Virus record (IMG/VR): IMGVR_UViG_3300035670_000145 | Coordinates: 9,811-73,810 of that record | Strand: one strand, 5' to 3' | DNA from: a virus | Length of the DNA stretch: 64,000 nucleotides | In this document: positions 22,256-63,849 of the stretch, in pieces | Layout: each line of letters begins with the position of its first letter | How positions within the stretch are numbered: the stretch's first letter is position 1 | Made by a program: the position numbers and the translations under genes | Notes under the pieces: model-generated | Seen by the model: only the letters and a program-made list of their open reading frames with translations | The model's database searches: none | What the model was told of the DNA's origin: nothing

Positions 22256-22741
22256 ATGCCCACTCCCATTGAATTTGTCTTCTCCGAAGAGGAAAGGAAG
22301 CAGGCGATGGAGGAAGGACAACGACGCCAGTCTGTGAACGAAACGAAAGGGCTTCGAGGGCGCAATAAAGGCGCGGCCCGTGGTGATCAAGCTTTGTCTA
22401 TTCACTTGCTTGGCGCCGCAGGTGAAATGGCAGTGGCATCTTTCATGGGCCTAAAGCACGAGCTTTACAAAGAAAGCGAGGCAAGGCGCGGGTCCGATGA
22501 TTTGCCGGGAATTGACGTAAAAACTCGATCAAAACATTCCTACGATCTCATTGTGCAAAAGAACGAAGACCCCGGAAAAAAGTTTGTTTTGGTGACCATT
22601 GAAAACCAAAAAACTTTCATTCATGGCTGGTGCTACGGAAAGGAAGCAATGGAGGAACGATTCTGGGCCGATCCCGCGAGAGGTAGGCCAGCTTATTTTG
22701 TTCCTAAAGAACAGCTTCGCCCCATGTCAACTTTGCAATGA
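22256..22741 (+). CDS. PD-(D/E)XK-like nuclease-fold protein
   Basis: GE.AVA ... D..... DVKT motif; ATG at 22256 after TATGAT. Confidence 0.55.
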   Translation: MPTPIEFVFSEEERKQAMEEGQRRQSVNETKGLRGRNKGAARGDQALSIHLLGAAGEMAVASFMGLKHELYKESEARRGSDDLPGIDVKTRSKHSYDLIVQKNEDPGKKFVLVTIENQKTFIHGWCYGKEAMEERFWADPARGRPAYFVPKEQLRPMSTLQ

Positions 22742-24120
22742 GCAGTTCTCTCAAATGCAGCGACTTTGCCAGGCATGTATTAAAGCTTGAGCTTTGGCCT
22801 GAGCAAAAGCGCATTCTTGACGGCTACTTTGGCGGCAACAAAACTCATGCCGTGTGGGCGCTTGGGCGACGCTGCGGCAAAACGCTTATGGCCGCTATTG
22901 CAGCCCTGTACGCCTGCTTTGTCTTGGAAGATCAATACAGAAGGCGCGTGCGAAAAACGGAAAAGTGGTACATTCTTACCATTGCAAACGATCAAAGCCA
23001 GGCAAAGCTAGCGCTCAATAATATTCGCCAGCTTCTAATGGACAGTCCTCTTGTTGATGAAATCACAAGAGAAACTGCCACTGAAATTGAAACTAGTAAT
23101 AATTGCGTGTTCCAAGCCATTCCTGCATCGGCCCGCGCTTCTCGTGGTAAGGCCGTGGTGATGTTAATCATGGACGAGCTTTCCTTTGCTATTGAAGGCG
23201 ATGCCAACCGTGGCGCAAAAGCCATCTACGATGCGCTTTCCCCTTCCATTGCACAGTTCGGGCAGCACGGACGCATCCTTGAACTATCTTCTCCATGGCT
23301 CACCGATGGCCTGTTCTATCAGCACTATTGCGAGGCAAAATCTGGAGAGTTTCCCTTTATGCAGGCAGTGAATCTCCCAACTTGGGAGGTGAATGTTAAT
23401 TTGCCATGGGGATGTGCATTCCTTGACGCTGAACTAAAACGTGATCCCGATAAGTTCTGGGTGGAATATGGAGCTCAGTTTGCTAAAAACAATTCAGCAC
23501 TATTGGCCACTGAAATTGTCGAAGCTGCCATAAGCAAGGAGCGGGGAGTACTGTTTCCCGAGAAAGAATTTACTGGCACTTATGTGCTTTCCCTGGACCC
23601 CGCCCGAGGCGGTGTGGGACGAGACGATTACACCGCTTGCATTGTTCATTATGAGGGCGAAAGGCTAGTGGTGGACAAGTTTCACGCCTTCGAACCAGAC
23701 TTTGAAATTGGTGGCAAGAAAGAAGTGAACATGGCGAAAGTGGAAGAGTGGATCAAGGAACACCATCGCATTTATGAGTTTCAAAGTATCGTGCTTGACC
23801 AATTCAATAGCAGCTTTATCATTCAGAATCTTTCTAAGGATTTTCCTATTGCAGAATTAGCCTGGTCAGTTAGCACAAAAATGAAAGCCTTCAGCAAAAT
23901 GAAAGAGCTCTTTAATGCTGGCTTAATTGAACTTTATCCTCACCAAAAAGCAATCACTCAGCTTAAAAATTTGAGCGTTATTTATAGAGCAAGCGGACAA
24001 TGGGCCGTCACTGGAGGAAAGGAAGTGGGGGTTGATGACTATGCGTTCGCACTTGCGGCGGCGATTCTTGAGGCATCCAAGGATAATGACATCGACTGGT
24101 TGAATAGTCTTGTTCGATAA
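22738..24120 (+). CDS. terL: Terminase large subunit
   Basis: Walker A GRRCGKT, Walker B LIMDE, SSP coupling motif, nuclease LDPA...D and C-terminal DD. Confidence 0.93.
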   Translation: MSSSLKCSDFARHVLKLELWPEQKRILDGYFGGNKTHAVWALGRRCGKTLMAAIAALYACFVLEDQYRRRVRKTEKWYILTIANDQSQAKLALNNIRQLLMDSPLVDEITRETATEIETSNNCVFQAIPASARASRGKAVVMLIMDELSFAIEGDANRGAKAIYDALSPSIAQFGQHGRILELSSPWLTDGLFYQHYCEAKSGEFPFMQAVNLPTWEVNVNLPWGCAFLDAELKRDPDKFWVEYGAQFAKNNSALLATEIVEAAISKERGVLFPEKEFTGTYVLSLDPARGGVGRDDYTACIVHYEGERLVVDKFHAFEPDFEIGGKKEVNMAKVEEWIKEHHRIYEFQSIVLDQFNSSFIIQNLSKDFPIAELAWSVSTKMKAFSKMKELFNAGLIELYPHQKAITQLKNLSVIYRASGQWAVTGGKEVGVDDYAFALAAAILEASKDNDIDWLNSLVR

Positions 24121-24170: not shown

Positions 24171-24347
24171 ATGATTGGTATTGAAATTTCTAGCAAGGAG
24201 CTAGCCTTTTTACTAGCGCTCCTGGAGGCCGACAGGCAAACGGCGCTTCAGCTTCTTGCCGCCGAGCATGCTTATAAGCCCACGCTACTGCCAAAACTGC
24301 GAGAGGCAGAGAAAGTTGTTAAAGCAATGAAAAATTTGGAAGGATAG
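24171..24347 (+). CDS. Small hypothetical protein (58 aa, not in ORF track)
   Basis: MIGIEISSKELAFLLALLEADRQ...NLEG*, preceded by TAGAAT. Confidence 0.5.
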   Translation: MIGIEISSKELAFLLALLEADRQTALQLLAAEHAYKPTLLPKLREAEKVVKAMKNLEG

Positions 24348-24372
24348 ACTAAACACATTCCTCCTCTTTGCC

Positions 24373-24588
24373 ATGGCATCGTCCTTCACCGCAGAAGAAG
24401 CCCTTGCTTGGGCCATGAAGGCTGCAGAAGCCGTAGAAGAAGCTGGCAAAAGCTTTGGCCCCATGAGCGAAGAATCGCGGCTCGCAAGGGCTGCTTTTGA
24501 GCATCTCATGGACGATTATCGCGAGCATTGGAGCAATGCCTGCGAAAGCCGGTTTGGCCATCAAGGATGCAAAGAATACGACGTGTGA
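24373..24588 (+). CDS. Hypothetical protein
   Basis: 71-aa ORF with TAGACT and a pyrimidine-rich leader. Confidence 0.6.
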   Translation: MASSFTAEEALAWAMKAAEAVEEAGKSFGPMSEESRLARAAFEHLMDDYREHWSNACESRFGHQGCKEYDV

Positions 24589-24729
24589 GCAATGGTTTGC
24601 TTGTGCTACAGCCTCCATGGCCAGCGGCATGAAATCAGAGTGCCATTTCACGAAGCGCGTTTTGTCAATAAGCGTTTGTTCCTGGAGGGAGCCGCCGTGT
24701 ACTGGACCTTTCTCTGTTAAGCTTTCAAA

Positions 24730-24942
24730 GCTTCCTGCAGGAGCCCGTTGGCCAACGGCTTGCCAGTATCCTCGTCAATGCTGGCATCATCGTGGATTCC
24801 GTTCACTGTCTTAAGTGAGTTGAAGCACTTAAGACGCTTGGCAGAATGTCAGGGCCGCACCCTGTTTATTTCCTGATGCGGAAACATTCTGCCGCTTGTC
24901 TCTTCTGATGATGAAAGCTGGTTTGATTCCAGCAGGAGACCT
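24730..24942 (+). ncRNA. Structured ncRNA ending in a tRNA-like acceptor/T-arm module
   Basis: -10 TAAGCT at 24718; perfect 10-bp stems 24808-17/24826-35 and 24840-49/24884-93; GTCTCTT/AGGAGAC stem plus GCTGG-TTTGATT-CCAGC arm. Confidence 0.7.
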
Positions 24943-24946
24943 TTCG

Positions 24947-25159
24947 CTATTTATTTCTGTGCCCAGCTTCTTCCGTTGCGTGAATGTAGGTTTTTAGCTC
25001 ACGCACATATTGTCTGAGCAAGGCGGCCTTCTCCAGATGCCAAGGATCACGATGGAGAAAGTAAAGCTCCATGTGGTTGTCAATGGCTTTTAGGCAATTG
25101 TGAATAGGCGCGTTCCATTGCGAACGAACTGGCGTATCAAACGTCCGACGCTCGTCCAT
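24947..25159 (-). CDS. Hypothetical protein
   Basis: 70-aa ORF coupled to the phosphoesterase gene. Confidence 0.6.
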   Translation of the reverse strand: MDERRTFDTPVRSQWNAPIHNCLKAIDNHMELYFLHRDPWHLEKAALLRQYVRELKTYIHATEEAGHRNK

Positions 25160-25697
25160 TGGCCTTGAAATAAGCCTTGATGTCCTCTAATGCTACCGGC
25201 TCAAAATCGTTTCTTTCTAAACAGGCATTGAAATAACGCCCGTCTACTTCCCCATCGTCCGTCAATACAAGATGACAATGGAGATGGCCGTGGACGTTGC
25301 CAAGATAATGCCCCTGCAAAATACTGGGATGCACTGGAATGTGCGTGAAGATTAGACCTCCCGGCATGGTGCTATCACCCCCACGAAAAAATGCTCCTCG
25401 AATGTCTTCAAAATACGGAAGATAATCTTGAATTTTGTAAATATCATGATTCCCTTTGACGAGAATCTTCTTCCCATTGAAACGATTGAGAAGCTGCAGA
25501 CCACTTCTGGGAATTGCCACGTCGCCCAAAATGTAAACGCGATCTTTCTCGTGGATCTTTTTGTTCCAACGCTCAATGAGCGTTTCGTGCATTTCTTCAA
25601 TGGAGGAGAAAGGACGAAGGGGTTCTCCGTCGGGACGCACGAAATCCAGCATCTTGGCATGGCCGAGGTGCAAATCTGATGTGACAAAAGCGCTCAT
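25137..25697 (-). CDS. Calcineurin-like metallophosphoesterase
   Basis: SDLH.GH, LGDV, GNHD, HIP and HGHLH motifs. Confidence 0.92.
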   Translation of the reverse strand: MSAFVTSDLHLGHAKMLDFVRPDGEPLRPFSSIEEMHETLIERWNKKIHEKDRVYILGDVAIPRSGLQLLNRFNGKKILVKGNHDIYKIQDYLPYFEDIRGAFFRGGDSTMPGGLIFTHIPVHPSILQGHYLGNVHGHLHCHLVLTDDGEVDGRYFNACLERNDFEPVALEDIKAYFKANGRASDV

Positions 25698-25950: not shown

Positions 25951-26020
25951 GGGCTCCTCCAGGAATCGAACCCGGCATTCCAGGCTATCTGCCTGACGTG
26001 TAAACCAACACCAAGGAGCA
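25951..26020 (-). tRNA. Non-canonical tRNA-like element (Ile GAT-like loop)
   Basis: Cloverleaf GCTCCT/AGGAGC, GTGT/ACAC, TCAGG-CAGATAG-CCTGG, CCGGG-TTCGATT-CCTGG; A33, 1:72 mismatch, short D-loop, no CCA. Confidence 0.7.
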
Positions 26021-26137
26021 AGTGACCCCCAGGTTTGAGCATCGTTGAGAGGCTTAGGGGGTGTTAAACGATGGAGCAAGCGTGAGGGTCATCCGGGATT
26101 TGCCCCCAGTGACGCACAGAGGCTTGCCCGCCGTCGC
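26021..26137 (-). ncRNA. Structured RNA 5' of the tRNA-like element
   Basis: -10 TATAGT at 26143-26148; nested stems GCAAGC/GCTTGC, GTCA/TGAC, CTGGG/CCCGG; C5/G5 hairpin; CATCGTT/AACGATG complementarity. Confidence 0.55.
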
Positions 26138-62994: not shown

Positions 62995-63849
62995 CTACAG
63001 CACCGGCATCTCATATTCTTTTGTGGTGTTGCAATAGTGCTTGAAAATAATTTCGCTGGTATTGCCTGCCCAATTCGCTACTTGCGGCACAGGGATTCCA
63101 GCCTCAATCCATCGACTGATGGCAGTGTGTCGACAATCGTATGGCCTGTACAGGTGTGAGATTAAATCGCATTGATGCAGTGGCTGCAACTTTTTGCGAA
63201 AATAGCTCTGGAAGGCAAGCCTGTCCCATGGAAAAATATATTCTTGTTCTTGTGGGAGTTTCGATAAAATTTCTTGACACCTTCCGTTCAATGGCACCCA
63301 TCGTTTCTTGTTGGTCTTGGTGCTATCTTTTAAGCCATGGGTCAGCGTCCAATTTTGATGCACTAAGGCTTTGTTGTCCTTGATGTCACCCCAGCGCAGT
63401 GCTCGCACCTCGCCGGTTCGCATGGCCGTTTGCAACATAAACTCTGCATACCAAGCCCAATTCACATTTTTATAAGTTTGCTTCGCCTCCAGAGCGGCCA
63501 GCACAAGTCCGGTCTCATTGCGGGGGATCACAATGATATCCTCGTCCCTTTGTGGGGCTTTAGGCATTTTGAAGCTGACCAAGGGATTCCTGTCCAAATA
63601 CCCCACATCCTCTTGTGCGGCCCAACGAAACATAGTTTTAGTGTACATAGCTACGCGACGGCTTGATAACACGGGTTTTTCGCCCAGTACCCAGATCATA
63701 ATTTTGCGTGCCTCTGTTAGCTCTTGAATCGGACAGCGCTTCAACCACTTGGTTACCTGGCTGTAGTCAGAGGTCAAACTGGTGGGACATAAAGAAATTG
63801 AGCGCTCTTCCAAGAAGGCGCTCCAAAGCTCCGAAAGCGTAGTAGGCAC
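62995..63849 (-). CDS. Tyrosine recombinase (integrase/Xer-like, no arm-binding domain)
   Basis: T.MR.GE..AL.W.DI, TK, PY..RHT, GN......HY catalytic pattern; promoter TTGACG-N17-TAGTGT at 63874-63902. Confidence 0.9.
   Translation of the reverse strand: MPTTLSELWSAFLEERSISLCPTSLTSDYSQVTKWLKRCPIQELTEARKIMIWVLGEKPVLSSRRVAMYTKTMFRWAAQEDVGYLDRNPLVSFKMPKAPQRDEDIIVIPRNETGLVLAALEAKQTYKNVNWAWYAEFMLQTAMRTGEVRALRWGDIKDNKALVHQNWTLTHGLKDSTKTNKKRWVPLNGRCQEILSKLPQEQEYIFPWDRLAFQSYFRKKLQPLHQCDLISHLYRPYDCRHTAISRWIEAGIPVPQVANWAGNTSEIIFKHYCNTTKEYEMPVL

Follow-up and report, generated by a model that had tools for sequence, protein, structure and literature searches.

What is encoded where two gene blocks of a phage genome run towards each other? 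In the 64,000-nt stretch of viral DNA analysed here (the window; bases 9811-73810 of a 73.8-kb IMG/VR virus record), a + strand packaging block with TerL (22738-24120) and small ORFs converges on a - strand block, which contains a 70-aa ORF, a metallophosphatase, tRNA-Ile, an abiF RNA and endonuclease VII. An initial annotation made from the sequence had read the interval between the two blocks as a modular structured RNA, in which hairpins sit on GCTT linkers behind a -10 element TAAGCT and which ends in a tRNA-like minihelix, and it had suggested either maturation by RNase P/Z-type recognition or a tRNA decoy against anticodon nucleases. The reading that we favour, and that we regard as fairly probable, is that of a new RNA gene with an extended -10 promoter, in which the minihelix would be a reduced tRNA serving as the processing signal that releases the core RNA (Table 1).

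Table 1. Features of the locus and Glutamine-II riboswitches of related loci. Positions are those of the window unless a related locus is named.
Feature	Position	Strand	Remarks
42-aa ORF	24592-24720	+	Final gene of the packaging block; contains C..C and H..H residues
Predicted extended -10 element TGT-TAAGCT	24715-24723	+	TAAGCT at 24718-24723; overlaps the TAA stop of the 42-aa ORF
Core structured RNA, ~168 nt	24730-24897	+	Predicted +1 G24730; predicted 3' end after U24897
H0, 5'-terminal hairpin	24730-24744	+	Contains palindrome TCCTGCAGGA (24733-24742); 98.6% of cells pair
H1, gapless 14-bp palindrome CCGTTGGCCAACGG	24745-24758	+	Loop GGCC; 100% of cells pair; 2 compensatory pairs
H2, 9 bp including one G-U	24761-24786	+	Loop CCUCGUCA; 7/9 pairs compensatory
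Single-stranded segment GGAUUCCGU	24794-24802	+	Invariant in 21 aligned members
H3, 10 perfect bp	24808-24835	+	Invariant loop AGUUGAAG; 7/8 inner pairs compensatory
Three-way junction	24840-24893	+	Closing helix H4: 24840-24849 with 24884-24893 (10 bp); 7/10 pairs compensatory
H5, inner junction hairpin	24850-24864	+	Loop CCGCA, invariant; 3/5 pairs compensatory
H6, inner junction hairpin	24870-24883	+	Loop UGAUGC, invariant; 1/4 pairs compensatory
tRNA-like minihelix, 43 nt	24898-24940	+	Acceptor 24898-24904 with 24934-24940 (7 bp); discriminator C24941
Minihelix linker	24905-24916	+	12 nt between acceptor 5' strand and T-arm
Minihelix T-arm	24917-24933	+	24917-24921 with 24929-24933 (5 bp); loop UUUGAUU
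70-aa ORF	24947-25159	-	Converging; its end lies 6 nt from the minihelix
Glutamine-II riboswitch, L004	4105-4158	-	Rfam
Glutamine-II riboswitch, L351	1805-1858	+	Rfam
Glutamine-II riboswitch, L058	4160-4216	-	Rfam

The two genes that flank the element differ in what they resemble. The product of the 42-aa ORF has a near-identical counterpart in the related locus L004, the 3' coding part being kept with third-position changes, and Pfam gave no match to it; this conservation at the protein level (MVCLCYS.HGQRHEIRVPFHEARFVNKRLFLEGAAVYWTFLC) lies directly 5' of the RNA promoter. The 70-aa ORF on the opposite strand provides the sole similarity of the region to an isolate phage, namely to a hypothetical protein of Synechococcus siphovirus S-CBS4. 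Farther into the - strand block, the abiF RNA (RF03085, 55.7 bits; 26025-26061, - strand) lies 5 nt upstream of tRNA-Ile(GAU) (25951-26019, - strand) and forms a second small structured RNA fused to a tRNA within this genome; abiF RNA was found as well in L002, L003, L004, L016, L019, L058, L091, L098, and L276.

Homologues of the element were collected by gathering loci around the neighbouring metallophosphatase and 71-aa ORF and by scanning the viral collection with a conserved motif, for which GGAUUCCGU served as anchor, giving a set of 22 and later of 29 distinct sequences. Pattern scans of genome and metagenome collections returned mainly chance matches and 10 usable extra loci, and the covariance-model searches were run on the fetched loci. 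The comparison of these sequences decides whether the hairpins are more than a property of a single sequence. In the 12-sequence seed alignment, which was not fitted to a model, 97.2% of the cells pair and 17 of the 48 pairs are compensatory, compared to at most 6 in slid controls. The 29-sequence alignment was fitted to the model and leans slightly towards the structure for this reason; in it 95.9% of the cells pair and 30 of the 48 pairs are compensatory, compared to 38-46% pairing and at most 8 compensatory pairs in slid controls. Every helix of the core shows compensatory changes among the homologues, and the covariance model R1 built from the seed scores the window with 206 bits and a distant member that was not part of the seed, L108, with 57 bits. 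The proposal of a structured non-coding RNA is borne out by this covariation, which confirms 24730-24897 (+) as a conserved structured RNA of an undescribed family in uncultured, S-CBS4-related cyanophage-like siphoviruses.

The strand is assigned by the pairs themselves, since G-U pairs outnumber A-C pairs 52 to 9 in the alignment, pointing to the + strand as the structured one. Folding energies of the + strand are low compared to shuffled sequences (z -3.4 for 24718-24960 and z -3.7 for 24730-24897); the - strand likewise folds well, so that the energy of a single sequence is no guide to the strand. The good folding of both strands, together with the position of the element, which is flanked by the ends of a + ORF (24720) and of a - ORF (24947), would fit a cluster of hairpins that acts mainly as a bidirectional terminator or 3'-end stabiliser between converging late (+) and early (-) operons. 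We regard this as very improbable because the sole terminator-like site is the internal hairpin H5, with none at the minihelix or at either end of the element, because terminators need neither invariant loops and single strands nor covarying stems, because the + strand runs on into tRNA, riboswitch, and ORF in most relatives, and because the excess of G-U over A-C pairs argues against it.

The conserved RNA folds into seven helices, H0 to H6, including a three-way junction. Its stems vary, in contrast to the wholly or almost invariant loops and joining strands CCUCGUCA, GGAUUCCGU, AGUUGAAG, CCGCA, and URAUGC: the H2 loop is almost unchanged throughout the window-type family, and the H3 stem is as short as 5 bp in relatives, which keep its loop. 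Additional hairpins occur beside H1 in relatives and, in L461, also within H3. The stems and the T-loop lie where they were first placed, as do the GCTT words (24730, 24758, 24836, and 24894). The hairpins that the initial annotation listed are all supported, its inventory having missed the two at the 5' end, H0 and H1; its view of GCTT linkers as a principle of design does not hold, since the equivalent positions in relatives read TCTC, TTTT, TCAC, GCAA, and others. A long-range pairing of 24734-24745 with 24929-24939, which appears in the minimum-energy fold, was dismissed as it shows no covariation and clashes with H0 and the T-arm. The combination of about 45 invariant loop and junction nucleotides with seven covarying helices is usually met in ribozymes, ligand sensors, or ribonucleoprotein scaffolds.

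A second RNA type resembles the window's in plan. Most of the 80 metallophosphatase loci carry at the equivalent site a sister RNA (L007-L081; for instance L058:4314-4467, - strand), which shares the promoter and the pair of palindromic hairpins at the 5' end, has an H2 stem homologous to that of the window type, and forms a three-way junction whose loops, GCCGAC and AUUGAAGCC, are related to those of the window type. The first covariance model gave weak matches to it of 12-21 bits, and the common plan was revealed by inspection; R2, a model made from 29 members, failed to detect this family. At least two subtypes of the sister RNA exist, and 8 of its 43 predicted pairs are compensatory in 19 sequences.

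Neither RNA type is present in Rfam or in the isolate phages searched. The initial annotation recognised no family and named Rfam as the place to look; the search of Rfam 15, whose families include manA, wcaG, Yfr, Y RNA-like, phi29 pRNA, tRNA-like RNAs, and ribozymes, returned no family match at E values up to 10, as the only three matches within 24300-25300 were at chance level (E 5.9-9.8; snoRNA and PGK models). The weak matches to SNORD100 and sR20 rest on the linker UGAUGA, which is variable in relatives, and were set aside as chance. In 19 relatives, searched both in gathering and in E-value mode, Rfam reported nothing over the core, and it gave no match to the sister RNA. Blast searches of isolate phages with the window-type and the sister RNA matched the tRNA-Leu part only, and a search of the phage's own 73.8-kb genome for targets of the invariant loops yielded nothing convincing. 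Within one group of uncultured cyanophages from lakes, this undescribed RNA with its own predicted promoter is common. The related locus L276 is an 11-kb contig (JAIYDG010000287.1) that was binned as a Bacteroidetes MAG from a pond. It carries the minihelix and the riboswitch along with the window-type RNA, and also tRNA-Ile and abiF RNA; the contig probably belongs to a phage and was put into the wrong bin.

The start of the RNA gene is indicated by the DNA in front of it. Sigma-70 extended -10 promoters read TGnTAnnnT, with the TG at -15/-14, TAnnnT spanning -12 to -7, and transcription starting at a purine 6-7 nt farther on, and TGT-TAAGCT shows this arrangement if G24730 is taken as +1. 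Numbered from the first G of H0, the upstream positions T-15 and G-14 are conserved in 53 and 54, and T-12, A-11, and T-7 each in all, of the 56 unique upstream variants of the superfamily, for which the consensus is TGnTAWGMT; upstream of -16 the sequence is variable, being coding in some lineages and non-coding in others. A scan for two hexamers found no -35/-10 pair and no -35 box. With the TGnTAnnnT positions kept to this extent, the original assignment of TAAGCT stands, and it is very probably the -10 element of the RNA gene with G24730 as predicted +1. A hairpin formed by AAGCUU and AAGCUU (24719-24733) was considered for the same stretch and rejected because the conserved positions are those of TGnTAnnnT, which promoter DNA explains better.

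The predicted start is closely followed by two palindromes, both perfect and gapless, namely TCCTGCAGGA from +4 to +13 and CCGTTGGCCAACGG from +16 to +29, which together occupy 24733-24758. In other lineages the palindromes read TTCGCGAA, TTCTGCAGAA, TCCGGCCGGA, ACGCTGGCCAGCGT, CCACTAGGCGCCTAGTGG, and CCTGTGCGCACAGG. Both are kept in 72 of the 74 variants, with six sequence variants for the palindrome of H0, whose centre is offset from that of the hairpin, and five for the one of H1. Their symmetry exceeds the need of a hairpin, the loop of which does not have to be self-complementary. The palindromes could be bound as DNA by a dimeric protein just past the start site or could serve RNA-RNA pairing between two copies.

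These palindromes, kept without a spacer by compensating changes, are also what would recommend a function at the level of DNA, either as operators (+4 to +29) or with the region as packaging site, origin, or attP containing a tRNA 3' half; the element adjoins the terminase block, and a tyrosine integrase (PF00589, 49 bits; ~63019-63471, - strand, close to the record end) is encoded, so that the phage may be temperate. We give such a function very little credence. The other helices carry long, asymmetric, invariant loops and G-U pairs, as is typical for RNA. Regarding attP, the integrase lies ~38 kb away, a degenerate 24-nt pattern of T-arm and acceptor had 9 matches in 185,579 species genomes, none of them cyanobacterial, and both acceptor halves are present and covary, unlike in an attP core. 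An operator role of the palindromes, moreover, is compatible with the RNA.

Four nucleotides past the three-way junction begins the minihelix, the part of the element that resembles a tRNA. The tRNA hallmarks of a 7-bp acceptor stem, a 5-bp T-stem, and a 7-nt T-loop (UUCRANY, with G53-C61 closure) are found in it, and a cloverleaf with D-arm and anticodon arm is not; correspondingly, ARAGORN called no tRNA gene at 24898-24941 and Rfam gave no tRNA match at E values up to 10. The T-loop has the canonical sequence UUCGAUU in relatives and in the window a U where tRNAs have C56. The proposed fold is the minimum-energy structure, its energy being ordinary (z -1.6); for L083 the minimum-energy fold differs from the minihelix. 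Among nine distinct, related sequences, 5 of the 13 minihelix pairs are compensatory compared to at most 1 in slid controls, two of them in the acceptor stem, two in the T-arm, and one between linker and T-loop. All pieces of the acceptor/T-arm minihelix described initially are thus in place, and the covariation shows that the predicted fold is under selection. A minihelix pattern scan found one distant member, L461, in which the acceptor keeps the fold by a change from U-A to C-G. Length and both boundaries of the minihelix are exactly kept while the acceptor sequences drift and the discriminator can be C, A, or G; of the minihelices, all but those of the window and L002 have a mismatch at acceptor position 6, and position 3 is C-G in every variant.

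The compensatory pair between linker and T-loop joins a linker purine to T-loop position 3, and in the nine related sequences it is G-C in six, A-U in two (the form of the window), G-U in one, and never A-C. Its behaviour is suggestive, and only suggestive, of the tRNA elbow pair G19-C56, which is contacted by many tRNA-binding proteins and RNAs (PMC4810234). Two other identities were tried for the 3' part. ARAGORN found no tmRNA in the window and the pair G3:U70 is missing, and a hammerhead-like CUGAUGA...GAAA at 24905-24916 has no stem II and a sequence that is not conserved.

The origin of the minihelix is suggested by what relatives carry in its place. In L093, L098, and L346, a complete tRNA-Leu(UAA) called by ARAGORN and Rfam begins 4-5 nt after the junction, and in L374 one begins ~10 nt after it. 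Taking both RNA types together, the slot holds a tRNA, always Leu-UAA, in 39 of the 74 distinct variants, a minihelix in 12, and nothing in 23. With homologous flanks on both sides of tRNA-bearing and minihelix-bearing loci, the comparison shows the minihelix to be the positional equivalent of tRNA-Leu(UAA). The best alignment of the minihelix with 31 tRNA-Leu variants lies only ~2.3 sd above shuffles and is not significant, so that descent from tRNA-Leu is supported by position and not by sequence. The tRNAs of the slot come in lengths of 74-76 nt with a short variable region and of 82-90 nt with a long variable arm (L007, L013, L022, and others). The long variable arm is the usual build of tRNA-Leu, and the form with the short variable region is unusual for a leucine tRNA.

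Downstream of the slot a further RNA follows in relatives. A Glutamine-II riboswitch (RF01704, above gathering score) lies on the same strand 12-20 nt after the tRNA or minihelix, in all minihelix-bearing relatives but L002 and in many tRNA-bearing ones, and it is succeeded by an ORF of 33-39 aa (in L058, MNPLALIKQQLEKAARLREAQMASLVYRGVAYVPKPHWF). This order of riboswitch and small ORF is known from cyanobacteria and cyanophages as the Downstream-peptide arrangement (PMC6212724, PMC6698751). Riboswitch and ORF being on the same strand, + strand transcription through the region is predicted, and the tRNA or minihelix thereby has an RNA module on each side. Riboswitch and ORF have been lost from the window and L002, where the minihelix abuts the converging gene.

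The core may be real and the minihelix nonetheless a decaying, functionless remnant of a deleted tRNA-Leu gene, in which case the 3' end of the core would come from run-off into the U-rich stretch 24942-24958 or from exonuclease trimming to the junction stem. The empty slots speak for such a remnant: with 23 of the 74 variants having no tRNA module at all, the module is dispensable for the core, and these members have a U-tract, as in several of them, or a terminator-like hairpin after the junction. The mismatch at acceptor position 6 in most minihelices, the U that replaces C56 in the window, and the ordinary folding energy fit decay as well. Decay does not readily account for the five compensatory pairs in nine distinct sequences, with the distant L461 included, for the change of C56 to U being paired with a change of G to A in the linker, or for the exactly kept length and boundaries, and we judge a functionless remnant to be unlikely.

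The features that were retained, acceptor, T-arm, and putative elbow, could alternatively be those by which the minihelix, with or without the core, lures away as a decoy or sponge some host factor recognising tRNAs at their acceptor/T-arm end. Such a factor might be a toxin of a defence system that acts on tRNA 3' ends by modification or cleavage, an SmpB/tmRNA-type factor, or a tRNA-modifying enzyme. The abiF antitoxin-type RNA fused to a tRNA ~1 kb away makes RNA-based counter-defence plausible in this genome. The minihelix has no anticodon arm, which excludes anticodon nucleases as targets and thereby the decoy as it was initially conceived; varying discriminator bases and drifting acceptors make a sequence-specific partner less likely, the element has no defence-related gene linked to it, and the slot is that of an ordinary decoding tRNA with another RNA module on either side. 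A decoy is, in our estimation, distinctly improbable.

We return to the processing signal. Acceptor and T helices stacked on each other, a T-loop, and an elbow-like contact are the features by which a tRNA is recognised by RNase P and RNase Z, by the CCA-adding enzyme, and by enzymes that modify the T-loop. The maturation of the RNA by RNase P and RNase Z, which had been considered from the beginning, is plausible and was inferred from two circumstances, namely that tRNA-Leu(UAA) fills the same slot and that the minihelix keeps the parts these enzymes recognise. According to this model, a host-type RNA polymerase would initiate at G24730 from TGT-TAAGCT, and the transcript would fold into the two palindromic hairpins at its 5' end, two more hairpins, the three-way junction, and then the minihelix. 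The latter would be a tRNA pared down to the needs of RNase P, RNase Z, and the CCA-adding enzyme, with D and anticodon arms gone. RNase P would cut between U24897 and G24898 to create the 3' end of the core, and RNase Z would cut after C24941 to free the downstream RNA; in relatives these cuts would, as in tRNA punctuation, part the core from the Glutamine-II riboswitch with its mini-ORF. The core released in this way would be a stable trans-acting RNA.

Bacterial RNase P and RNase Z are thus predicted to mature a phage small RNA by way of a 43-nt tRNA stub. Otherwise homologous loci with a full tRNA-Leu, a minihelix, or nothing in the slot can be regarded as a natural experiment on which features of a tRNA survive once decoding is no longer needed, and the association with tRNA-Leu(UAA) and a Glutamine-II riboswitch hints where the function of the core may be sought. 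A wider proposal we put forward tentatively, as possible rather than probable. The core would found a cyanophage RNA superfamily, consisting of the window type and the larger sister type with 74 variants in the fetched loci, that is made early from a host-type promoter and helps to take over the translation or the nitrogen metabolism of the host beside tRNA-Leu(UAA) and the peptide of the Glutamine-II riboswitch; its palindromic hairpins could pair two copies or be the operator of a protein; and the minihelix would be the first natural tRNA gene of a bacterial virus of which nothing but a signal for RNase P/Z and CCA addition is left, and would thus parallel mascRNA in prokaryotes.

Phage non-coding RNAs with a tRNA as punctuation are of a known kind; new are the undescribed RNA family and the tRNA reduced to a minihelix. 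The species 1 and 2 of phage T4 (rnaC and rnaD), like other small RNAs within tRNA clusters of phages, are stable non-coding RNAs which are cotranscribed with tRNAs and released by host nucleases of tRNA processing. They share neither sequence nor structural similarity with the core described here, and they sit in a tRNA cluster, whereas here a single tRNA slot lies outside of clusters and is reduced to a minihelix in the lineage of the window. Among eukaryotic RNAs, tRNA-like elements mature the 3' end of MALAT1, and mascRNA/MALAT1 and MEN-beta (RF01684; PMC8457004) resemble the phage element in that a non-decoding tRNA-like fold directly follows a structured non-coding RNA; as in mascRNA/MALAT1, an RNase P cut on the 5' side of the tRNA-like part, predicted in our case, would give the upstream RNA its 3' end. 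These systems are eukaryotic and nuclear, and their cloverleaf has a small anticodon arm, whereas the phage minihelix has neither D nor anticodon arm and no Rfam match. Mitochondrial transcripts are likewise punctuated by tRNAs, including armless ones, so that a tRNA or reduced tRNA stands between functional RNAs and RNase P and RNase Z separate the neighbours (PMC3790967), a separation that is predicted for the phage RNA; the reduced mitochondrial tRNAs keep an anticodon arm and still decode, which the phage minihelix cannot do. The tRNA-like domain of tmRNA also combines acceptor and T-arm, and its D-loop analogue, unpaired over ~12 nt, makes contact with the T-loop, as is predicted for the minihelix; unlike tmRNA, the minihelix has C-G instead of U-bearing G3:U70 at position 3, no tag reading frame, and no helix between D-analogue and T-arm. 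A further comparison is with the Glutamine-II/Downstream-peptide loci (RF01704; PMC6212724, PMC6698751), in front of which, in the relatives, the new RNA and the tRNA are directly placed on the same strand. The window differs from them by the loss of riboswitch and peptide ORF, and the core, which is found also without these, is a separate module; the adjacency of the riboswitch in the relatives ties this RNA family to the nitrogen-related RNA islands of cyanophages.
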